From assembly GCA_902384935.1 (NCBI GenBank), contig CABMDO010000012.1:1-64000 (forward strand): a stretch of DNA of 64,000 nt, written 5' to 3'. The notes beneath the pieces are model-generated. The model saw only the letters and a list, made by a program, of their open reading frames with translations. It was not told where the DNA came from and did not search any database. Each line of letters opens with the position of its first letter. Position 1 is the stretch's first letter. Origin of the DNA: Candidatus Norongarragalina meridionalis (GTDB taxonomy: Archaea > Micrarchaeota > Micrarchaeia > Norongarragalinales > Norongarragalinaceae). Positions 1 to 38,372 of this stretch are shown piece after piece. Position numbers and translations under genes: made by a program.

Positions 1-1030
1 GATGAAGGACTGCTAAAGGGCGGGAGTAACTCTGACTCTCTTAAGGTAGCGTAATACCTCGCCGCTTAATTGGCGGCTTGCATGAATGGCGTAACGAGCG
101 TCCCACTGTCCCTGCTTTGGACCTGGTGAACCTACTACTCAGTGAACATGCTGAGGACACTCAGAGGGAAACGAAGACCCCGTGGAGCTTAACCACAGTC
201 TGCTATTGGAACTCGGTTGACCGATCAAAGCGTAAGCAGTAGCCGCTACGTCCGCCCTTCCGGGGGCGGAATAGGCGAAAGTGTGACACTGCTATTGGTT
301 GACTGCGTTTCTTACCTGAAAGGGAACAGTGGCTGATGGGTGGTTTGACTGGGGCGGTACGCCTTCGATAAGAAAACAAAGGCGCCCAAAGTTCAACTCA
401 AGCCGGTCAGAAATCGGCTGCAGAGGGTCAAAGACAAATGTTGGACTGACTGTGATCCTAACAAAATGGGTCGCAGGCACGAAAGTGGGGCTTAACGAAC
501 AAAGGTGTCCCCCTTAATGGGGGCCCTTTCTGACAGACAAGCTACCCCGGGGGTAACAGGCTCGTCGCGTGCGAGAGTTCATATCGACCACGCGGTTTGG
601 TACATCGCTATCGGCTCAGGACATCCTGGTGGTGCAGGAGCCGCCAAGGGTTGGGTTGTTCATCCATTAAAGTCCTACGTTAGTTGGGTTCAGAACGTTG
701 CGAGACAGTTCGGTGGCATCTTCTGGGTGTGTTTTGCAGTGTGAGGGGAAGGAACTCTAAGTACGAGAGGAACGGGGTTTCGGCGCCACTGGTTTACCTG
801 CTCTCTACAGGGACGCAGGGTAGCTACGCGCCTTCGGATAAGTCCTGAAAGCATCTAAGGACGAAGCCGATCCCGAAACGACGCTGCTTAGGACGCCGGC
901 AAGCAGACCGGTTTGATAGGGCGGATGTGTAAGTACGAAGCCGCAAGGCGACGTATTCAGCTAACCGCCACTAAAGTCCAAACTTTGATTATTCCTACTG
1001 CGCGGGCGGTTTCGCCTGCGCAAGTGAATA
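1..1030 (+). rRNA. rrl: 23S rRNA, 3' ~1 kb (partial; 5' end lies outside the window)
   Basis: Conserved LSU motifs read directly: cttaaggtagcgtaatacctcgccgcttaattggcggcttgcatgaatgg, agaccccgtggagctt, ggttcagaacgttgcgagacagttcggt. The 3' end is estimated by alignment to the bacterial 23S terminus (gtgtaagtacgaagc ... gctaaccgcc), +-40 nt. Confidence 0.85.
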
Positions 1031-1105
1031 GGTTGTCTGACACCTGCACGGCCTGCGTATCGACACCGTCGGCGCACGAGCTAGTTTACTTGGTGATCGG
1101 CTTTC

Positions 1106-1453
1106 GTGTTCTCTAGTCTTTCTAACATTTTCGTTAAAATTGGACTTTTTCTAGTCAACAATCTAAAAATTTCTTCATTTTTTGCGCTAGTTCTTGCTTT
1201 TTTCACTTTTATGTTTATTCATTCCGCCGCTTTTTCTATGATCGGCTTGGGTCTAAACGCAGTCGGTTCATTTGTATTAATCAGTCCTTATCTCGAAGAT
1301 CCCAAAAAATCGGCCTATGCGTATGCTGCTCATATCGGCACAAATCCGCATGCAGAAGAACTTCAAAGGAAACAGAATCGCATCGGCATAACAGGCCTTT
1401 ATTATATTTTTATTGGTTTTCTGTTTCAATTAGCTGCATATCTGCCCCTCTGA
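1106..1453 (+). CDS. hypothetical membrane protein (low-GC island)
   Basis: 115-aa ORF with 3 hydrophobic segments. AT-rich relative to the rest of the window. First gene of a co-directional 3-gene island. Confidence 0.35.
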   Translation: MFSSLSNIFVKIGLFLVNNLKISSFFALVLAFFTFMFIHSAAFSMIGLGLNAVGSFVLISPYLEDPKKSAYAYAAHIGTNPHAEELQRKQNRIGITGLYYIFIGFLFQLAAYLPL

Positions 1454-1517
1454 CCGAGGTATCTCATTTTTTATAAGATCTGGTGGGGTTTTAAACCTAA
1501 GAAAATAAATCAAATTC

Positions 1518-2279
1518 ATGAGACTTCGAAAGATATTTTATTTTATTTATTGGATATTTCTAGTAGTTGCCGTTTTTGTGTCTGCTTTCAGTCCAGAAAA
1601 ATGTTCGCACGTAGCTGCTGTGAACTCTTGTTTGACGAGTGGCGGTCCTTTATGTCTAGCAATGCCATACTATCCTGAAGACGTCTTGCAAAATTTTGTT
1701 TCTAAAAAAGAGTTAGAACTAAATGATGCCTTTTATTACAAAATTCCCGTTTTCTATTCCGGACCGCTACCGATGGAAATTTATGTTACTGTCGTTTCTC
1801 CCAGCGGCGAAATACTTGATAACAATTCATATACTTTGAATACGACCAGTTCCGTTCTAGAACCTAGACTCATTGGAGATACCTTTTCGGCTTTTCAGAT
1901 TCAGGAATCGGGAGTCTATAAAATTATTTTAAATGGAAACTCCGCGCTGTATTTTATTAAGTTAGATAACACAACCTGCGGCTATTACAGCGGTTATGGC
2001 CAAATACTGTATAGTTTCGACGTTCTTTCTAGTTGGGAACGTAATTTCAGAAAAGCAATACGAGAAGCATCCGACACCTCCGTGGCGGCAGCTAACGAAT
2101 CTAGTAATACGCTGAAACAGGTGGCTAATATTCTAGAAAACGTAAAAAGTATTAACGAGCAAATGCTAACTTCTACCAGAAACGTGGAGTCCCTTACGAT
2201 TGTAGTAATTATTTTAACTTTATTCAATGTCCTAGTTGTCTGGATTTTAGAGCGTAGGCGGCGGAGGGGATACGAGTGA
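1518..2279 (+). CDS. hypothetical membrane-anchored extracytoplasmic protein (low-GC island)
   Basis: 253 aa with an N-terminal TM (IFYFIYWIFLVVAVFVSAF), an N-glycosylation-sequon-rich middle, and a C-terminal TM plus RRRRGYE. Low GC. Stop overlaps the next start (GTGA). Confidence 0.45.
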   Translation: MRLRKIFYFIYWIFLVVAVFVSAFSPEKCSHVAAVNSCLTSGGPLCLAMPYYPEDVLQNFVSKKELELNDAFYYKIPVFYSGPLPMEIYVTVVSPSGEILDNNSYTLNTTSSVLEPRLIGDTFSAFQIQESGVYKIILNGNSALYFIKLDNTTCGYYSGYGQILYSFDVLSSWERNFRKAIREASDTSVAAANESSNTLKQVANILENVKSINEQMLTSTRNVESLTIVVIILTLFNVLVVWILERRRRRGYE

Positions 2280-2611
2280 ACGAATTACGCGGAGTTGAAG
2301 ATGCTCTAAAAGACATCGCTAATAACACTAAGGATACTTGGCGAGATTCGGACCGTCGTAAAACGGTTTATCTTCAAGAAGAAATGATTAAACTACAGAT
2401 GGAAACGATTAAACAACAAGGAGAAACGGTTAAACTACAGGCAGAGATGGCTAAACAACAAGGAGAAACGGTTAAACTACAGGCAGAGATGGTTAAACTA
2501 CAAAACAAAACATGGCAAATATACGTTTTCTTGTGTATCCTGACTGCTATTTACGCGTTAGCCGCAGTAGCGCAAGTCTATGTAATGTTGTCTCAACCCA
2601 AAATAGTCTGA
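2276..2611 (+). CDS. coiled-coil protein with C-terminal TM anchor (contains a 14-aa tandem duplication)
   Basis: 111 aa. KQQGETVKLQAEMA/V is repeated twice (42-nt tandem repeat), followed by the hydrophobic tail IYVFLCILTAIYALAAVAQVYVML. GTG start overlapping the upstream stop. Confidence 0.45.
   Translation: MNELRGVEDALKDIANNTKDTWRDSDRRKTVYLQEEMIKLQMETIKQQGETVKLQAEMAKQQGETVKLQAEMVKLQNKTWQIYVFLCILTAIYALAAVAQVYVMLSQPKIV
2411..2494 (+). repeat. perfect 2 x 42-nt tandem repeat inside the coiled-coil ORF
   Basis: aaacaacaaggagaaacggttaaactacaggcagagatgg(c/t)t occurs twice back-to-back (1 mismatch). Coordinates +-2. Confidence 0.8.
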
Positions 2612-2752
2612 GCCTAGCTACGCAGGTTAAAGACGCAATTTGTCCTTGTGCTGGTTCAGAAAGAAGTATCAATCCATCAGCTTACCATCGCTCGTACCGT
2701 GGCGGCTCGTCCTCCTCAAGCAGCCGCTTCCTCTCCTTCTGCTTATGCCCCG

Positions 2753-3787
2753 CTATGGAAACGGACTAGGCGAGGGCGACGGACTGGGCAACGGAGATGC
2801 GCTTGGAGTCGGCGATGGAGAGGGACTCGGAACGGGCAGAATAACGCTGAATACCTCTTTCCATTCGCCCTGATTATTGCAGTAATCCTCTGCCTGAACG
2901 CCGAAGGAACAGTTTGCGCCGGCCGGAGAAAGTCCACTGAATGTGAAGTAGTTTGAAACTGCTAAGCTGTAAATTTGATTGTTTCCAGCGCATTGGTATC
3001 GTGTCCTGTACCACATTCCGCTTGGGTTCGGGCTGGGGTCTACCGCCGGCGCCCACATAAGGAAAACATAATCTTGTCCTATGTTGCTCTCGAGAATATT
3101 CCCCACGACTCCCGGCGGAGTCATGTCAACTCTGGCAATGTTCGAGTCGGGAGCTTCAAAATAACCAGAATCTCCATAATAGCAGCGTATGTTCCACAAA
3201 TAATTTGCCTCTGTAGAGAACGAGTAAGTGATGTGGTTTTCCTGGCCGTTCAGGATTTCCGAGGTGTTCCATTTGGTAACAGCCATGCTGCCCGTTTCGT
3301 TTGTAATCAATGAGCAGTTCCTAACCGTTATCCCATTGAAATAAGGAATGAACGAAAACACCTTGAACAAAGATGCGCACTCTCCGTATCCGAGTAGTGA
3401 AAGAGTGGGTTGAGCTGTGGGAGATGGGCTAATTATCGGACTAGGCGAAGGCGATGGAGACGGAATTACCGTTGGCGTAGGCGTTGGGGATGGCGACGGA
3501 CTCGATGAGGACGAAGGCGTCGGGGAAGGATTGGGTGAAGAAACTGGTAGTGGCGAGGGACTTGGTGACGAAGCGACGGATGGAGCAACAGATGCGGCGG
3601 GACTGGGAGATGCTAACGGCGCCGTTGTTGACTTGACTGTTGGTTGTACGCTAATCGTGGCTTGAAGCGAAGGTCCCGCGTCCACGGACGGAATGTCCGA
3701 AGATTCCACCACGGCTCCGGTTTTCTCGATACAACCAAAGAGCGCTAACGATAAAACGATTGTGAGAATCGCGAACTTGTTTTTCAT
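2753..3787 (-). CDS. secreted lipoprotein-type surface protein with Pro/Ser/Thr linkers
   Basis: 344 aa. N-terminus MKNKFAILTIVLSLALFGC (signal plus Cys lipobox-like). Long PSPSPSP/PTPTP linkers at both ends. Cys-containing globular core (YRTRYQCAGNN...). Confidence 0.6.
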   Translation of the reverse strand: MKNKFAILTIVLSLALFGCIEKTGAVVESSDIPSVDAGPSLQATISVQPTVKSTTAPLASPSPAASVAPSVASSPSPSPLPVSSPNPSPTPSSSSSPSPSPTPTPTVIPSPSPSPSPIISPSPTAQPTLSLLGYGECASLFKVFSFIPYFNGITVRNCSLITNETGSMAVTKWNTSEILNGQENHITYSFSTEANYLWNIRCYYGDSGYFEAPDSNIARVDMTPPGVVGNILESNIGQDYVFLMWAPAVDPSPNPSGMWYRTRYQCAGNNQIYSLAVSNYFTFSGLSPAGANCSFGVQAEDYCNNQGEWKEVFSVILPVPSPSPSPTPSASPLPSPSPSPSPFP

Positions 3788-3800
3788 TCAAATCACCGTT

Positions 3801-4358
3801 TCAATGCCTGCTTCTCGTCTTCGCAACCGTCGCGACTGGACGCGAAACCTTGTCTTTCCAAAGCGATCCCGTTAAAATCGTGTTGTTGTAAAGTATTCCC
3901 GCAGGGAACGACTGACGATAGTCACCGTATGCGTTCTGGTACGCAATGTAATGATATGCGACCCAGAGGCCGTCCATCAACCCGGTGTAGTCGCCCAAGT
4001 CCGTGAGGGTACCTGGATCCCAGTACTTGTTGCAATAATCTCCCAGCGTCATGTGGCCATAGCAGAAATCGCCAGGTTGCCACGGTCCGCAGCTTGGTCC
4101 CTTGAGGAGCTGGACGTTAATTCGGTGCAGAAGTATGAACTCCGTATAGAACTTGACGGTTTTGACGCAATAAATGCCGTTGTGAACTATGACCGCAGAG
4201 CCGCCTGCGTTAGGGATGAGATCGCTGATGGCGCAGGAATTGAAGGACATGTTTGTGGCGCTTCCCATGTTGTACGTTGCGAAGCACGGAACCGTAGTCA
4301 ACGCCGCAACACCCGCCGCAACGAACGCCAAACCAAGCAAAACAAAGCTAAATTTCAT
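3801..4358 (-). CDS. secreted Cys-rich protein
   Basis: Start taken at the internal Met MKFSFVLLGLAFVAAGVAALTT (signal peptide). The longer ORF-track N-terminus is Arg-rich junk. 6+ Cys and Tyr/Gly/Asp-rich C-terminal half. Confidence 0.5.
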   Translation of the reverse strand: MKFSFVLLGLAFVAAGVAALTTVPCFATYNMGSATNMSFNSCAISDLIPNAGGSAVIVHNGIYCVKTVKFYTEFILLHRINVQLLKGPSCGPWQPGDFCYGHMTLGDYCNKYWDPGTLTDLGDYTGLMDGLWVAYHYIAYQNAYGDYRQSFPAGILYNNTILTGSLWKDKVSRPVATVAKTRSRH

Positions 4359-4436: not shown

Positions 4437-4799
4437 CTAGGCGCCGCCCTTCCAGTGCGGCGGTTCTTCCTCCTCAAGAAGCGCCTTCCTCTCCTTCTCC
4501 TTCCGCTTCTTCCACGCCAGGTATCCTGCGACTGCGAGGACGCCAAACACCGCCGCGCCAAGGGTTATGATTTTGCCGTTCTCGCTTCGCGCGTAGGCGC
4601 CCTTCCAGACGCACATGCAGTAGTCGGGCGATTCTTTGTCAAGAACAAGCTCCATGGAACCGCATTCCTCCTGAATCTTCGGGCAGTAAAGCGAGCAGCT
4701 GGTTTCGTTGACTAAGGCGAACTCGTTCGGCGACGGAGGGCATGTCGCCGCGGCTGCGAACGAGGCGAAAAGCAGGAACGCGAAAACGCCGGCCTTCAT
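4437..4799 (-). CDS. small secreted, C-terminally membrane-anchored Cys protein
   Basis: 120 aa. Signal MKAGVFAFLLFASFAAAATC, 6 Cys, a TM (AAVFGVLAVAGYLAW), and a KKRKEKERK...EEEEPPHWKGGA tail. ATGA overlap with the upstream gene. Confidence 0.5.
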   Translation of the reverse strand: MKAGVFAFLLFASFAAAATCPPSPNEFALVNETSCSLYCPKIQEECGSMELVLDKESPDYCMCVWKGAYARSENGKIITLGAAVFGVLAVAGYLAWKKRKEKERKALLEEEEPPHWKGGA

Positions 4800-6166: not shown

Positions 6167-6640
6167 TCATCTATTTCCGCCCTTCGCCTTCCTCTTCGGC
6201 AATCCCTCGAGGAAGTCCTCGACTGCCCGCCGCCGCTCCTCGTCCCCGGCGCGCTTGATTTCCTCGTCGCGCGCTATCGCCCTGACGCCCTGCGTGGGGT
6301 TCATCTTCCGCACGCCGGCTTTCTCCAGCGCCTTGCTAAGCCGTCCGAGCAGTTCGCTTCCTCTCGGCGTAGCCGCGCTCAGCACCCCGTAAACCGGATG
6401 TTCGTCCTCCTTGTAGCCGAAGCGCACGATTCCCGCGTCGACGTGGTTGTCCGCCTCGAAGAAGCGGTCCAGCATCTCCTTGGCTTCGATTGTCATGGCG
6501 CGCGCCCGCGCCTCCTGGTCGCCGACGAGCGCGGGGAAATAGAGCTGGAGCGTGCCGCCTTCCACGACGAAGTGGTCCAAGCCGCGTTCCACGAGACGTT
6601 TGGCGACGCTTTCCATGAGAAACGTAATAAACTTCCGCAT
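6167..6640 (-). CDS. hypothetical protein, paralog B of 4801..5223
   Basis: See paralog A. The C-terminus KRKAKGGNR plus an out-of-frame tail (..EEPPHWKEGV) looks like a fused remnant of a 4437-type gene. Confidence 0.5.
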   Translation of the reverse strand: MRKFITFLMESVAKRLVERGLDHFVVEGGTLQLYFPALVGDQEARARAMTIEAKEMLDRFFEADNHVDAGIVRFGYKEDEHPVYGVLSAATPRGSELLGRLSKALEKAGVRKMNPTQGVRAIARDEEIKRAGDEERRRAVEDFLEGLPKRKAKGGNR

Positions 6641-6653
6641 ATATCTGCTTTTC

Positions 6654-7508
6654 ATGAAGATGACCGCCATCGGAAGGATACGTGACATCCCGAAATGGGC
6701 TCACCGCGGTGGTTTCGATCGTTTGTCCCCTGCCGAAAGACGGGAAGTTGTGGACGGCTACCGCATCGCGGTCGAGACGTTCGGCAGGCCGCGTTCCAAA
6801 GAGGAGGCGGCGGCGCAGGTCCGTGACCTGCTCAGCGCAACAGTGTTCCACTCCGTCTCTAAAAAACTCGTTATTTCGCCCTCGATTCCGAGGAAAAAGA
6901 CGCCGGATTTCCGCCGCAGGCTGTCCAAGGCGGTTTTCTCGCCTCGCGGCAAATTCGGTCCCGGCGGGACCGCATCGTCGAGCGGGCGAATACGGCTTTA
7001 TGATTTTACCGCGCCCACCGCCGCGCACGAGGGGGCGCACATCATCCTTCGCAACTATCTGGGCGAGCACGAGTTCCGGCCGCTTGCAACGGCAATCGAC
7101 GAGCTCGTGAGCTACCAACGGGACGAATTTTTCTCCTACCTTCCCTACGAGCTTTATTTGAAGAACAGCGTCGTCAGAAATCCCAGCAAATACGCAATAC
7201 AGCATTCGTCGGAAACCGGCAAAAAAAGAAAAGCGTACGCCGTCGGCAGGGGGATAGCGCTCGACGCCATTGAAATTCTGGAAGAACTGGGCGAGAACGG
7301 CAGGTACGCGCCCTACAATCTGGCGTACAAGTACGTCGGTTATCTGGCGAAGGGGCAGTCGCCGGCGCAGGCGCGGATCAGCGTGTTCTGGGATTTCGTA
7401 AAAGCGTTTCCCGACTCGCCGAAGGTTCGCGAGTACGTGCTGCCCGAAGTCGAACGAAGCAGCAAACTGCTCGCTGCGGTGGACCGCGAGCTGAAAAGGA
7501 AGCACTAG
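6654..7508 (+). CDS. hypothetical protein with an HEXXH zinc-peptidase-like motif
   Basis: Start at MKMTAIGRIRD, preceded by cgtaataaac/catatatc TATA-like elements. Motif AAHEGAHIILRNYLGEHEF. The opposite-strand 389-aa ORF is an Arg-rich artefact. Confidence 0.45.
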   Translation: MKMTAIGRIRDIPKWAHRGGFDRLSPAERREVVDGYRIAVETFGRPRSKEEAAAQVRDLLSATVFHSVSKKLVISPSIPRKKTPDFRRRLSKAVFSPRGKFGPGGTASSSGRIRLYDFTAPTAAHEGAHIILRNYLGEHEFRPLATAIDELVSYQRDEFFSYLPYELYLKNSVVRNPSKYAIQHSSETGKKRKAYAVGRGIALDAIEILEELGENGRYAPYNLAYKYVGYLAKGQSPAQARISVFWDFVKAFPDSPKVREYVLPEVERSSKLLAAVDRELKRKH

Positions 7509-10893: not shown

Positions 10894-11394
10894 TTGATGA
10901 AGGGTGCGGTAAAGGAAACCGCGCAGTTCCTGGCGCTCTTCCTTTTCGTTGCAATACCCGTATATTTCGTGCTGGGATTTTTCGCCGCATCCTTTTCGGA
11001 AATAGCGGCATATTCCTCGCAAGTAATGCTGAACGCGGCAGGAGTGCGCACGTCCATTACTCTCGAAAACGGCGTCGCACATGTCATTTCTCCGTCTTTC
11101 GACGCCGAAATCGGCGATTTGTGCTGGGGGCGAGTGGAAATAGCCGTGCTTGCGGGAATAGTGATGGCAAGTTGGGACAGAACCGTGCGGCGAAGAATCG
11201 AGGGCATTATTCTCGGAATCGCCGTGCTTCTGGTGCTTAATCCCGTCAGAATCGCCGTTTCTCTCGCCGTCTACGACCCGCAGAACCCGCAGGCGTCTGC
11301 GCTGTTCCACGACGTTTTGTTCAGGGCTACGCTGGTAATCGTTTTGGTAGCCTACTACGCAGTATGGTATTACTGGCTGTCGAAGCGCCGTTAA
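10894..11394 (+). CDS. 4-TM membrane protein, possible exosortase/archaeosortase-family core
   Basis: 166 aa. Cys-Arg-Asn candidates in DAEIGDLCWGRVEIAVLAG and ...LVLNPVRIAV are reminiscent of the exosortase/archaeosortase triad. Immediately follows the FlaJ-like gene with a TTG start. Lacks the GGADVK motif of A24 prepilin peptidases. Confidence 0.35.
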   Translation: MMKGAVKETAQFLALFLFVAIPVYFVLGFFAASFSEIAAYSSQVMLNAAGVRTSITLENGVAHVISPSFDAEIGDLCWGRVEIAVLAGIVMASWDRTVRRRIEGIILGIAVLLVLNPVRIAVSLAVYDPQNPQASALFHDVLFRATLVIVLVAYYAVWYYWLSKRR

Positions 11395-11789
11395 CTCGCT
11401 TTTCCCTTTTCGATGTTCAGCTTCGCGCGCGGCAGGTTTATCGGCGCGCCGATTCCGAGCGTGAACGCGAGAAGCGTTCCGACGGATGCGGCGGAATAGC
11501 TGATGGCGTTGAGCACGTCCTCGGCGAACTCGGAGGCGAGGAACTTCTTTTCCTTCCAGCCTTCGAGAATCTCCTTGCGCACCTTGGCGTCCTCCTGTAT
11601 GATGATGTCGCCCTTTATGACGAGCTCGGCGACTTCGTCCTGATAATCCGTCTTGTGAGTGTACGAGACCAGAAGCGCCCCTTCCTCCTCCTTGACGCTG
11701 GTTATGTCTATGTTCACGTTCAGCCCCTTGACCGCGCCGTCCTTGAGCCTCTTCGCGCTGGCTTCCGTGATTCTTCCGCCTAGTATCAT
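11391..11789 (-). CDS. hypothetical conserved-looking protein divergent from ftsZ
   Basis: 132 aa, alpha/beta-like composition (VKGLNVNIDITSVKEEEGALLVSYTHK...). SepF-like function is pure speculation. Confidence 0.4.
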   Translation of the reverse strand: MILGGRITEASAKRLKDGAVKGLNVNIDITSVKEEEGALLVSYTHKTDYQDEVAELVIKGDIIIQEDAKVRKEILEGWKEKKFLASEFAEDVLNAISYSAASVGTLLAFTLGIGAPINLPRAKLNIEKGKAS

Positions 11790-11991
11790 TAAACCACCCT
11801 CCTAGTGAAAGATTTTCCGAAAACGCCTTTATATTGCTTCCGAGAGAGCGTGCCTTTTATATGGCGCGCGGGTTCGGCGCGCCGTGCAGCCGCGTAAACA
11901 AAACCTTTTTAATTCGGGGGAGGGTTTTCCTTTCACTAGTGATATTCGAAGGGGAGCAGGTGATTGTGTGGAAGATTTGGTAAACGAGGCT

Positions 11992-13056
11992 ATGCGGTCT
12001 AGAAGTTCCAGGAAACAGCAGCAGGACTCCAGCGACTTCAAGTTCGAAACCCCCAAGCTTATGGTGGTGGGCGCGGGCGGCGCGGGATGCAACTCCATCA
12101 ACCGCCTCGCGAAGGCGGGCATCAAGGGCGCGGAATTAATCGCCATCAACACGGACAAGCTCCATCTTACGACGATATCCGAGAGCGCGAAGAAGGTGCT
12201 CATCGGAGCGAGCATAACGCGCGGATTGGGCGCTGGCGGCTATCCCGAGATAGGCGCGAAGGCAGCCGAAGTATCCCGCGAAGCGCTCGAGAAGATGTTC
12301 GACGGCGCGGACTTGGTGTTCCTCACCGCAGGCATGGGAGGAGGAACCGGTACGGGCTCGGCCCCGATTCTCGCGGAAATCGCGAAGAAGCAGGGCGCGA
12401 TCGTAATCTCGATAGTCACATACCCGTTCGCGCTCGAGCGCGCCCGCCTCGAAAAAGCAGACCAGGGCCTTGAGGCACTGAAGGCGCAGGCGGACACCAT
12501 AATCGTAATCGACAACAACAGGCTCGTCGAAATCGTTCCGAGCCTTCCGATAGACAAGGCGTTCAACGTCGCGGACGAGATTATAGCGCGCGCAGTTCGC
12601 GGAATCGCCGAGACCATTACTACGCCTTCACTCATCAACCTCGATTTCGCCGACGTGCGCGCCGTAATGAGCAACGGAGGCGTTTCGATGATCGCCGTCG
12701 GAGAAGCGAAGGGCACCAACCGCGCGGAGGAAGTAGTGAACAACACGCTACACCACGCGCTGCTCGACGTGGATTACACCGGCGCGACGGGAGTGCTGCT
12801 GCACATCACCGGAGGCCCGGACATGACGCTAGGCTAGTGCAACCAAATCGGCGAGGCGCTTACGGAACGCGTCGATCCGAACGCCACGGTTATATGGGGC
12901 GCCCGCGTCGATCCGACGTTCGAGGGCAAGATAGAGGCGATTGCCATATTCACGGGCATCCAGTCGCCGTACGTCCTCGGAAAAACGGTTCGCGGAGTCG
13001 GCGGCGCGCCGAACAAGAGGCGCGAGGAAGGGTTCGACGACGTCGACTTCCTTTAA
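11992..13056 (+). CDS. ftsZ: cell division GTPase FtsZ, interrupted by an in-frame TAG at 12835-12837 (readthrough, pseudogene or error)
   Basis: GAGGAGCNSINRL and the tubulin signature MGGGTGTGSAP. The ORF stops at TAG after ..HITGGPDMTLG, but the same frame continues with CNQIGEALTERVDPNATVIWGARVDPTFEGKIEAIAIFTGI...DDVDFL and ends TAA at 13054-13056, which is the conserved FtsZ C-terminal domain. Start could be GTG 11968 or ATG 11992. Confidence 0.75.
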
Positions 13057-28749: not shown

Positions 28750-28853
28750 GCAGGGGTGGCTGAGTTTGGCCAAAAGCGGGGGACTTAAGAGGCGGGAACG
28801 CCTGCGAAATCCCCTCCCTTAGGGGTTCGGGAGTTCAAATCTCTCCCCCTGCA
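28750..28853 (+). tRNA. tRNA-Leu (anticodon UAA) with a ~19-nt intron 3' of the anticodon
   Basis: Acceptor gcagggg/cccctgc, D stem gct/agc, anticodon stem gggga...tcccc with loop cUUAAga interrupted by aggcgggaacgcctgcgaa. Long variable arm (tcccttaggggttc). T arm gggag-ttcaaat-ctctc. Confidence 0.7.
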
Positions 28854-30578: not shown

Positions 30579-31688
30579 GCCTGCATAAAACTTCTTTTTA
30601 GCCCGACGGGCAGGATTGGAACGGCCCCGTCTCTTCAGTCGGATACGAGTAGTCGGTATAACTGTCATAGGGCCCGAGGCCGATCAGCCAGAGCGGGCAG
30701 AACAAGCCGCTGAGGCCATTGCCAGTGAAGCATCCGAGGTCGCAGGAACGGTGGCACAGCCCGCCAATAATCGGAATAGTCAACTCGCCATTTTCCGCGC
30801 AGGCGTCGTAGCAGGCATCGTGCGTCCTGCAGCCGCCGTTGCTTCCGCACTGCTGCACGGCGTATGTGCATTGGTAGAAGCAGCCTTGGCCGTCGTTTAC
30901 GCATTGGGTTTTCTTGGGCAGCTGCTTGCATGTCCATGGGCAGTCCGCGCCGCACGCTCCCCTGCATTCGGACCCGCTGGCGATAGTGGGGTTGCGAGGC
31001 TGGGTTCCGCTGACTGCCTGCGGGCACGGCGGACGAACATATGCGCATGTTGGAGTTGGGCTCGGGCTGACTTCAGGCGGTTCAGGAGGAGGTGCGCGCG
31101 AGGCTTCGGGAATCATCACCGGCGAGGCTTTGGGCATGGGTGTCGATGTTGGAGCGGGTATTTTTGTCGCTGTCGGAGCGGGCATTTCTGTCGGCGTCGG
31201 AGAGGAACCCGGGCATCCGTTGGCGTCGATTCTTGTTCCGCTCAGTGAGGCTGAGCCTTTACAGCATTTGTCTTGGTCGTAGTAGTCCCAGGTGTAGCTG
31301 CCCGTGAAAGAGGAGCAGTCGGACGAGAAGACCAGGTCGAAGGCGGAAAGTGTGGCCGTGCCGGTGCCGTCAGTGACGGTCCTGCCGGGCATGCTGAGAG
31401 TGTTGCCCAGGAACGTACCCCTCGCGGGGCCGTCGCCCCAGTCGCTCACGTCCGCAATCTGCATGTCGTGCTGTATGATGACCTCGCGGACATCCGTCGC
31501 GATGCCGGTTCCGCAATCGGTTTCATCGTCGCTGACGGTGACGCTCCAATGGGTTATGCCGACATAAGTCCCAAAAGTAAATGTGGATTGCGCGGTGACC
31601 ATTTGCGGCAAGAAAAGGATGAAAAGCAGGACCAGTGAGCAGACAAAAACCGTTTTCATTTCGTTCCCCATCACGATATCGCCTCTCC
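30579..31688 (-). mobile_element. single-gene cassette inserted at the mscL 3' end, flanked by 55-bp direct repeats (no recombinase)
   Basis: 1.1 kb between DR1 and DR2 carries only ORF 30598..31674. Sits between the convergent ade and mscL genes, whose stops would otherwise be 3 nt apart. Confidence 0.5.
30598..31674 (-). CDS. secreted Cys-rich protein with Pro/Thr linker (cassette cargo)
   Basis: Signal MMGNEMKTVFVCSLVLLFILFLPQMVTAQS. Linker PTPTEMPAPTATKIPAPTSTPMP. ~24 Cys in the C-terminal half (CGADCPWTCKQ...CHRSCDLGC). Confidence 0.5.
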   Translation of the reverse strand: MMGNEMKTVFVCSLVLLFILFLPQMVTAQSTFTFGTYVGITHWSVTVSDDETDCGTGIATDVREVIIQHDMQIADVSDWGDGPARGTFLGNTLSMPGRTVTDGTGTATLSAFDLVFSSDCSSFTGSYTWDYYDQDKCCKGSASLSGTRIDANGCPGSSPTPTEMPAPTATKIPAPTSTPMPKASPVMIPEASRAPPPEPPEVSPSPTPTCAYVRPPCPQAVSGTQPRNPTIASGSECRGACGADCPWTCKQLPKKTQCVNDGQGCFYQCTYAVQQCGSNGGCRTHDACYDACAENGELTIPIIGGLCHRSCDLGCFTGNGLSGLFCPLWLIGLGPYDSYTDYSYPTEETGPFQSCPSG

Positions 31689-37057: not shown

Positions 37058-37846
37058 GTGGCGATAGAGAAAAAATTCATCAAAAAGGCGCTGAGCGACC
37101 TGCAGATAGCGGGCTTCCTCGAGAAGGAGCTCGAGCGCGCGGGCGTTTCGACCATCGAGATACAGAAGACTCCGATTGCGACGCGCATTACGATTACCGT
37201 CAGAAGGCCCGGACTGGTTGTCGGAAAGAAGGGCAAGACGATAAAGGATTTGTGCGACGAGCTCACGCGCCGCTTCGGCATGGAGAACCCGCAGATTGAA
37301 GTCGTCGAAGTGGCGAACGCGTCGCTCGACGCCAAGCTCATGGCGGAGCGCGTAGGAAAGAGCATCGAAATGCGGCCGCAGGCGAAGGCCGCTATGCGCA
37401 TCTCGTTGCGCGAAATCATGGAAGCCGGCGCAATAGGCGCGGAAATCCGCGTCGCTGGCAAAATAGTCGGCAAGGGCGGAAAGGCGAAGGCGTTCAAAGT
37501 CAAAGCGGGATACATCAAGAAATCCGGCGACATGATGAACTCCGTCCGCGTCGGCACGTACGTCGCCCGCCTGAAGGCGGGATGCGTCGGAATCACGGTC
37601 AAGATAGTCCCGCCGAACACGATGTTCGCGGACCAGTACAGCGCTCCCGATAACGTCGCCGCGGCTCAGGCAGAAGCCGAGGCGGAACTTCCCCCCGAAG
37701 CGCCTGCGGAGGAATCCGCGGTGGAGCAGAAGATGGAGGAAATAAAGGCGGTCGAAGGCGAATCCAAGGAAGAGGCGGGCGCGAAGAAGAAGCCGAAGAA
37801 GAAAAAGGTAGAAAAACATGGCGATAGTGAAAAAGCAAGCTCTTAA
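37058..37846 (+). CDS. rps3: ribosomal protein S3
   Basis: KH domain TIEIQKTPIATRITITVRRPGLVVGKKGKTIKDL plus the S3 C-terminal domain. Lys/Glu-rich tail. Confidence 0.9.
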   Translation: MAIEKKFIKKALSDLQIAGFLEKELERAGVSTIEIQKTPIATRITITVRRPGLVVGKKGKTIKDLCDELTRRFGMENPQIEVVEVANASLDAKLMAERVGKSIEMRPQAKAAMRISLREIMEAGAIGAEIRVAGKIVGKGGKAKAFKVKAGYIKKSGDMMNSVRVGTYVARLKAGCVGITVKIVPPNTMFADQYSAPDNVAAAQAEAEAELPPEAPAEESAVEQKMEEIKAVEGESKEEAGAKKKPKKKKVEKHGDSEKASS

Positions 37847-38051
37847 GGAAATGGGCGACGCCGATTTGAAGGCGAAGCTCGTGGAAATCGAGAACGAGCT
37901 CCGCATGCAGCAGGGCGCGCTCCACAACACCGGCAAGCCCCAGAGCACCGGGCGCCTGCGCGCGCTGAAAAAGCTCCGCGCGAGGATACTCACGTTCCTT
38001 TCCCAGCGCGAGAAGGCAAACGCTTTAAAGCTGGAATTTAAGAAGAAATAG
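37818..38051 (+). CDS. rpl29: ribosomal protein L29
   Basis: MAIVKKQALKEMGDADLKAKLVEIENELRMQQGALHNTGKPQSTGRLRALKKLRARILT. TAG stop. Confidence 0.85.
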   Translation: MAIVKKQALKEMGDADLKAKLVEIENELRMQQGALHNTGKPQSTGRLRALKKLRARILTFLSQREKANALKLEFKKK

Positions 38052-38066
38052 GAGGTTTTCCGAAAG

Positions 38067-38372
38067 TTGTCTGAAATCTGTTCCAAATGCGGGCTCCCCA
38101 AGGAGATTTGCGCCTGCCAGACTATCGAGAAGGAAACCACCCAGAAGATCAAGGTCTACACCACCAAGAAGCGCTTCAACAAACTCGTCACCATAGTCGA
38201 AGGACTGAAGGGCGAGGAGCTGGCGGGCGCGACGAAGGAGCTGAAGCACAAGCTCGCGTGCGGCGGCTCGTGCAAGGGCGGCTACATAGTGCTTCAGGGC
38301 GACCACCTGGACAAGGCGGTGGACTTCCTCGTAAAGCTCGGCTATCCGCGGGACATCATAAAGGTGGGATGA
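38067..38372 (+). CDS. sui1: translation initiation factor SUI1 (aSUI1/YciH)
   Basis: TTG start. CGLPKEICAC zinc knuckle plus KIKVYTTKKRFNKLVTIVEGL..GGYIVLQGDHLDKAVDFL (SUI1 fold). Confidence 0.8.
   Translation: MSEICSKCGLPKEICACQTIEKETTQKIKVYTTKKRFNKLVTIVEGLKGEELAGATKELKHKLACGGSCKGGYIVLQGDHLDKAVDFLVKLGYPRDIIKVG

Follow-up and report, generated by a model that had tools for sequence, protein, structure and literature searches.

Archaeal FtsZ1 proteins (TIGR00065) consist of a Tubulin/FtsZ GTPase domain (PF00091), a C-terminal domain (PF12327), and a tail, as in FtsZ1 of M. jannaschii (PDB 1FSZ and 1W58). The conserved C-terminal tail is the region of archaeal FtsZ that binds SepF (PMC8178401). 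The ftsZ gene described here encodes the same GTPase domain, C-terminal domain, and tail. Unlike the gene of M. jannaschii, it has a TAG codon at the position equivalent to E299, at the start of helix H10.

The decoding of UAG known from other archaea relies on pyrrolysine (Pyl) and includes full reassignment of the codon, and the Pyl-encoding archaea include Methanococcoides burtonii (bioRxiv 10.1101/2024.09.30.615893). The ftsZ gene resembles genes in systems with Pyl decoding or Code 34 (all TAG = Pyl) in having an in-frame TAG in an otherwise functional-looking gene. It differs from them in that TAG is a frequent, verified terminator here, only one gene is affected, and the affected site is occupied by Glu in all homologues examined. 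It also differs from reassignment of a stop codon to a standard amino acid, because the in-frame TAG occurs once in the DNA analysed and at none of 91 orthologous loci.

The gene comes from 'Ca. Norongarragalina meridionalis' LFW-144_1, a metagenome-assembled genome (MAG) of an uncultured member of the Micrarchaeota (DPANN) from groundwater. LFW-144_1 (0.93 Mb in 49 contigs, 93.5% complete, 20 tRNA types) is the type genome of 'Ca. Norongarragalina meridionalis' and a GTDB species representative (assembly GCA_902384935, contigs CABMDO01, sample ERS2655293; read sets in ENA PRJEB21808). It was built by co-assembly of four Illumina samples with MEGAHIT v1.0.2, binning with CONCOCT, and refinement in anvi'o. 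The bin coverages (Q2-Q3) given in Table S9 are 1.53, 0.94, 2.47, and 5.20, with a sum of 10.1, and are either fold-coverage or anvi'o normalised abundance. Text searches of the papers on the MAG and on the evolution of Micrarchaeota found no mention of ftsZ, stop codons, pseudogenes, or pyrrolysine.

We analysed a 64-kb stretch of this genome (the window). An earlier reading of the window, referred to here as the original prediction, had described the TAG in ftsZ and had raised the possibility that UAG is decoded in this organism.

A single in-frame TAG interrupts ftsZ

We found that ftsZ occupies positions 11968-13056 on the forward strand, with 362 codons that include an internal TAG, followed by a terminal TAA. 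The translation is collinear with 31 FtsZ proteins from Micrarchaeota in an alignment. Alignment of the orthologues places the true start at the GTG at 11968-11970 (MEDLVNEA...), and the deposited protein (P0121) begins at this same GTG. A Shine-Dalgarno-like GGTGAT (11959-11964, forward strand) precedes it. Both elements (11959-11970) are kept in two relatives from the same genus (L001 and L002), and GGTGAT probably acts as the Shine-Dalgarno sequence of ftsZ.

The TAG (12835-12837, forward strand) is codon 290 of the 362 and would disable the gene if obeyed. Its context is ...GGC CCG GAC ATG ACG CTA GGC TAG TGC AAC CAA ATC.... Translation of 11974-13056 in one frame gave this one internal stop and ended in ...DDVDFL at the TAA at 13054-13056. 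That is, both the in-frame TAG and the open frame beyond it are as the original prediction had described them.

As literally encoded, the ORF (11968-12837, forward strand) specifies a truncated FtsZ of 289 aa. A protein search placed the gene in Micrarchaeota, and the 90% cluster of the best hit includes VVB67521.1 (P0121, 'Cell division protein FtsZ 1 [Candidatus Norongarragalina meridionalis]', 289 aa). The truncated product is identical to this entry, in which the depositors had already annotated the TAG as the end of the gene. The truncated FtsZ is thus already in the public record.

The TAG lies within a domain. The 289-aa product contains nearly all of Pfam Tubulin (2-189 of 190; PF00091, E = 6e-45), including the G-box GGGTGTG (in MGGGTGTGS), and only positions 1-51 of the 95 in FtsZ_C (PF12327). 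The 72 codons after the TAG (12838-13056 with the TAA, forward strand) encode FtsZ_C positions 55-95, a linker, and the tail ...GFDDVDFL. FtsZ_C is therefore cut in two, and the sequence downstream is indeed the rest of the FtsZ C-terminal domain, as had been claimed. In the nomenclature of the FtsZ fold, we take this downstream part of the domain to be helix H10 and strands S9-S10.

With Glu restored in place of the stop, the protein scored 407 bits on the TIGR00065 ftsZ equivalog (cut-off 295). Its best match in the PDB was FtsZ1 of M. jannaschii (E = 6e-97, residues 29-334), and the TAG column corresponds to E299 of that protein (...DLTLEEAREV...). The 72-codon tail had a coding score of +29.8 in the self-trained gene model, and the ...GFDDVDFL downstream of the TAG fits the consensus G-x-x-D-I/V-E/D-F-L of the 31 relatives.

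We also considered a split gene with a separately expressed C-terminal piece. There is no in-frame ATG, GTG, or TTG in the 72 codons, and the tail would therefore not be expressed as a separate fragment. We rejected this arrangement.

Relatives have a glutamate codon at the site

All 31 homologues in the alignment (69-95% identity) have Glu in the column that contains the TAG, as part of the motif TLGECN. The TAG thus falls on a sense position, as originally proposed. In the DNA of four relatives from the genus (L001-L004), the codon is GAG or GAA. Gene order around ftsZ is kept in the genus, with exosortase-like, Rce1-like, S27ae, and purD neighbours.

Protein databases hide orthologues that are interrupted and thereby truncated, and for this reason we scanned orthologous DNA directly. 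The pattern was a codon-degenerate form of M-T-L-G-TAG-C-N-x-I-G-E/D, and a version with NAR in place of TAG served as a positive control. The TAG-fixed pattern had no matches in the genomes of 185,579 species (one genome each) and none in 241 million metagenome records. The NAR pattern matched 43 genome loci and 44 metagenome loci; the ftsZ region of LFW-144_1 itself was not among the genome matches, although the pattern fits it. Together with the four genus relatives, these are 91 orthologous DNA loci, of which 48 have GAA and 43 have GAG. None of the 91 has a Lys, Gln, or stop codon at the site. The comparison of ftsZ orthologues that the original prediction had proposed as a check therefore gave one answer throughout: Glu in all 31 aligned homologues and TAG at 0 of 91 loci.

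The nearest relative found (P0126, encoded on a 1,952-bp contig of ENA assembly ERZ1426832) is 98% identical in amino acid sequence, with Glu in place of the stop. It matches the FtsZ of the window at every residue from 167 to the C-terminus, and thus over 100% of the tail after the TAG. No DNA from the same species was found in the genome and metagenome collections; the best match had 87% nucleotide identity.

A second ORF is linked to ftsZ. This 132-aa ORF (11391-11789, reverse strand) is divergent from ftsZ, and each of the four genus relatives has a counterpart of 133-135 aa in that position. It had no sequence match in Pfam, NCBIfam, or the PDB. The ORF could have a role related to division, given how constantly it is linked to ftsZ.

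ftsZ has no sign of decay

We compared the two parts of ftsZ to those of the relative L001. Omega was 0.033 for the part upstream of the TAG and 0.074 for the part downstream. By parsimony with the four genus relatives, the branch leading to the window has 29 synonymous and 6 non-synonymous changes; under neutrality, about 89 non-synonymous changes would be expected. No private amino-acid change falls within the 72 codons that follow the TAG. There are no frameshifts and no second lesion in the gene, and selection on it does not appear relaxed.

With no non-synonymous change after the TAG, and 6 changes versus the ~89 expected, any neutral period can cover at most ~13% of the branch. Four replacements that are absent from the four genus relatives are common to P0126, and the branch specific to the window is therefore shorter still. 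Judged from these substitutions, the TAG would be either extremely recent or not real.

TAG is an ordinary terminator in the window

We found that TAG is used regularly to end genes. A gene model trained on the window itself predicted 81 genes, with TGA as the stop codon in 46, TAA in 23, and TAG in 12 (ftsZ included). TAG had been thought a rare stop (4 of ~60 inspected); the count of 12 in 81 does not agree with this.

Of the 80 predicted genes other than ftsZ, 11 end in TAG, and we could verify 9 of these 11 ends by a complete Pfam domain or by the end of the orthologue. Complete Pfam domains lie just before the TAG in genes for adenine deaminase (Adenine_deam_C, 14-168 of 169), SfLAP (1-208 of 213), MscL, the ribosomal proteins L3, L23, and L29, and a T2SSF protein. 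For the genes at 4437-4799 and 6600-7508, the orthologues end within 2 codons of the TAG. In addition, the in-frame extensions past the other 11 TAGs were non-coding by score, with two exceptions.

One exception is a possible second in-frame TAG that would join the gene at 4437-4799 to that at 3801-4331 (both on the reverse strand). We rejected it: the upstream gene has an orthologue whose end lies within 2 codons of the TAG. A 35-codon spacer lowers the coding score, which is 19.9 for the gene at 3801-4331 alone and 5.8 when the full extension is included. No Pfam family was found for either gene.

The other exception is rpl29. Its TAG is at 38049-38051, and SUI1 begins in the same frame after five codons (37818-38372 for the two together, forward strand). 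Readthrough would produce an in-frame fusion of rpl29 and SUI1, as the original prediction had pointed out. Ribosomal_L29 and SUI1 are two separate standard families, and we do not regard the two genes as one. Because SUI1 is in the frame of rpl29, suppression of UAG throughout the genome would yield an L29-SUI1 fusion.

The TAGs of rpl3 and rpl23 had been described as backed by an in-frame TAA. A TAA does follow each, three codons after the TAG. For TAGs as a class, the next in-frame stop is no closer than it is after TAA or TGA (Mann-Whitney p = 0.65), and we rejected a systematic backing of TAG by tandem stops.

We also looked for other genes with an interruption like that of ftsZ. Of the approximately 21 syntenic genes that were checked, only ftsZ has an internal stop. 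No other gene of the window has an internal TAG, and no gene has a coding stretch hidden upstream of a 5' TAG. The survey of conserved genes for further in-frame TAGs, run within the window, thus returned ftsZ only. These results indicate that this archaeon uses UAG as an ordinary terminator and that its genetic code is standard.

Decoding machinery and RNA context

The window contains two tRNA genes, for tRNA-Thr(GGU) and tRNA-Leu(UAA). The search for a tRNA with a CUA anticodon, made within the 64-kb window, found none, and no Pyl machinery was seen there either. The genome paper lists 20 standard tRNA types and does not mention pyrrolysine.

The tRNA-Leu(UAA) gene (28750-28853, forward strand) has a 24-nt intron adjoining the anticodon. 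It was found by Rfam and by ARAGORN with the -i option, and was missed by ARAGORN in default mode.

We tested the RNA downstream of the stop for a PYLIS-like or other readthrough structure. The 120 nt from the TAG onward fold as shuffled sequence does (minimum free energy of -38.8 kcal/mol, compared to a shuffle mean of -38.8; z = -0.01), and we rejected this candidate. The base after the stop is U. Among the termination contexts described in bacteria, UAG-U is not known to be leaky.

Other regions of the window

The window starts inside a 23S rRNA gene, the 3' part of which is at 1-993 (forward strand; model positions 1988-2987). This is consistent with the paper on the MAG, which lists its 23S rRNA among the items not recovered. 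A stretch of 2.8 kb follows (994-3800) with a G+C content of 0.47, compared to 0.575 overall, and its ORFs were not called by the codon model. These encode a 253-aa membrane protein (1518-2279, forward strand), a 111-aa protein with repeats of the type ETVKLQAEM (2276-2611, forward strand), and a 344-aa lipoprotein-like protein with long linkers of Pro, Ser, and Thr (2753-3787, reverse strand). Two of the ORFs were scanned against NCBIfam and had no significant family. The stretch may consist of surface genes that are foreign or evolve rapidly.

At 30598-31674 (reverse strand) lies a gene for a secreted, Cys-rich protein of 358 aa that includes a linker rich in Pro and Thr. The codon usage of the gene is atypical, the self-trained model did not call it, and the protein had no family in NCBIfam.

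Origin of the TAG in ftsZ

The TAG is an isolated singleton in a gene that has not decayed, and the tabulated coverage of the genome is low. In our estimate there is about an even chance that it is explained by a consensus error or a minority allele, and is not a decoding signal. The TAG would then reflect one G-to-T difference (GAG to TAG) in the consensus sequence of a MAG that was co-assembled from short reads at low coverage. The T at 12835 could be an error of sequencing or assembly, or could represent a minority allele where coverage was thin, and it probably differs from the true majority base. All or most cells of the population would then most likely carry GAG and make a normal FtsZ of 362 aa. 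The locus is like the single-base errors and minority alleles of other low-coverage short-read MAGs in its MEGAHIT co-assembly, its coverage sum of ~10, and its singleton change. G-to-T is also the type of change caused by oxidative DNA damage during library preparation. We favor a consensus error or minority allele because any gene can be hit by a random error, whereas it seems unlikely a priori that a null allele of so highly conserved a core gene (omega ~0.05) would be dominant. Two considerations count against it. The 64-kb window has no Ns, all of its other genes that were checked are intact, and we saw no second obvious error; the assembly therefore does not appear to be generally error-prone. 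In addition, MEGAHIT normally retains the better-covered branch of a bubble, so that a consensus error requires very thin coverage locally.

It is also possible, at somewhat less than an even chance, that a genuine and very recent nonsense mutation is present in the dominant genotype, in which case ftsZ would be a newly formed pseudogene and its 289-aa product non-functional. We would hold with similar reserve that such cells divide by another system (an FtsZ2 paralogue, or ESCRT-III encoded elsewhere) or belong to a short-lived, dead-end lineage. The gene is like a recent unitary pseudogene in having one disabling substitution in an otherwise intact and syntenic ftsZ. Both the assembly as deposited and its annotation contain the stop, a single transversion separates it from the ancestral GAG, and the absence of other visible assembly errors in the window agrees with a real mutation. 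Gene loss is common in the reduced genomes of DPANN archaea. The genome could conceivably contain a back-up copy: most archaea encode one or two paralogues of FtsZ (PMC8178401), and Micrarchaeota are found in both the FtsZ1 and FtsZ2 branches (PMC9871819). What weighs against a nonsense mutation is the condition of the gene and of its relatives. FtsZ is under very strong purifying selection in this clade, and the codon is intact at 91 of 91 orthologous loci. Omega of 0.03-0.07 and the lack of private changes after the TAG give no hint of relaxed selection, and the event would have to date from no more than roughly the final 13% of the terminal branch. This ftsZ is unlike a typical pseudogene in having neither a second lesion nor relaxed selection, and for that reason a real pseudogene cannot be distinguished here from an assembly artefact. 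Both a consensus error and a recent nonsense mutation, which the original prediction had named as its other two alternatives, stand, and only the reads can separate them.

Translation of the UAG is, by our estimate, far less probable than either of these. Decoding of UAG by a suppressor tRNA-Glu(CUA), by tRNA-Pyl with pylS/pylBCD, or through a reassignment of the Code-34 type would give full-length FtsZ, and we consider it most improbable. In its favor, the frame past the TAG is open and coding-like, decoding of the Pyl type exists in other archaea (bioRxiv 10.1101/2024.09.30.615893), and the tRNA search covers 64 kb of ~930 kb. Against it are the 11 other genes that end in TAG, 9 of them verified and with non-coding stretches beyond, and the lack of any other internal or 5'-hidden TAG in the genes of the window. 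All homologues examined have Glu at the site; it is not a variable position, and neither Lys nor Gln occurs there. No relative has a TAG there, the tRNAs of the window are for Thr(GGU) and Leu(UAA) only, and the tRNA types in the genome paper are the standard ones. The main text of the Code-34 preprint (bioRxiv 10.1101/2024.09.30.615893) mentions neither DPANN nor Micrarchaeota. Programmed or leaky readthrough at this one UAG, in which near-cognate decoding would supply a little full-length FtsZ and so control the dosage of the division protein, seems to us just as remote. The open and intact downstream frame is what speaks for it. Programmed readthrough sites are typically conserved among relatives, but this stop is found at 0 of 91 orthologous loci. 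The RNA fold is no better than that of shuffled sequence, the UAG-U context is not generally known as leaky, and back-up stops are not preferential after TAG. The original suggestion that UAG is decoded, whether by a suppressor or Pyl tRNA or by programmed readthrough, is thus not supported: the verified TAG ends, the absence of other internal TAGs, the Glu at the site in all homologues examined, the intact orthologues, the lack of a CUA tRNA in the window, and the lack of RNA structure all run counter to it. Even together, decoding and programmed readthrough are quite unlikely. It is very doubtful that UAG is translated here by a tRNA-Glu(CUA) encoded on another contig, or through inefficient termination by aRF1, to give full-length FtsZ. 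That the dominant genotype truly lacks a functional FtsZ1 and divides by other means is more likely than translation of the UAG.

Implications

If the stop is real and is obeyed, the consequences for the protein would be severe. Based on the alignment to 1FSZ and 1W58, the 289-aa product is without helix H10 and strands S9-S10, and it would also be without the SepF-binding tail ...GFDDVDFL. It is very unlikely that such a fragment could polymerise or be anchored.

The main significance of the finding concerns data quality. VVB67521.1, at 289 aa, probably misrepresents the organism. Surveys of division genes and marker-gene phylogenies that include LFW-144_1 should treat the codon as GAG until reads decide. 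The analysis also indicates how a case of recoding can be tested from a single window: by the use of the codon as a terminator, by the ends of domains and orthologues, and by comparison of orthologous DNA rather than proteins.

For the biology of the organism, the meaning depends on which base the cells carry. If the T is confirmed by reads, this ftsZ would be a modestly interesting natural null of FtsZ1 in a DPANN symbiont. If the UAG were translated, amber sense-decoding would be documented for the first time in a DPANN archaeon, and only then would the finding be of great importance.
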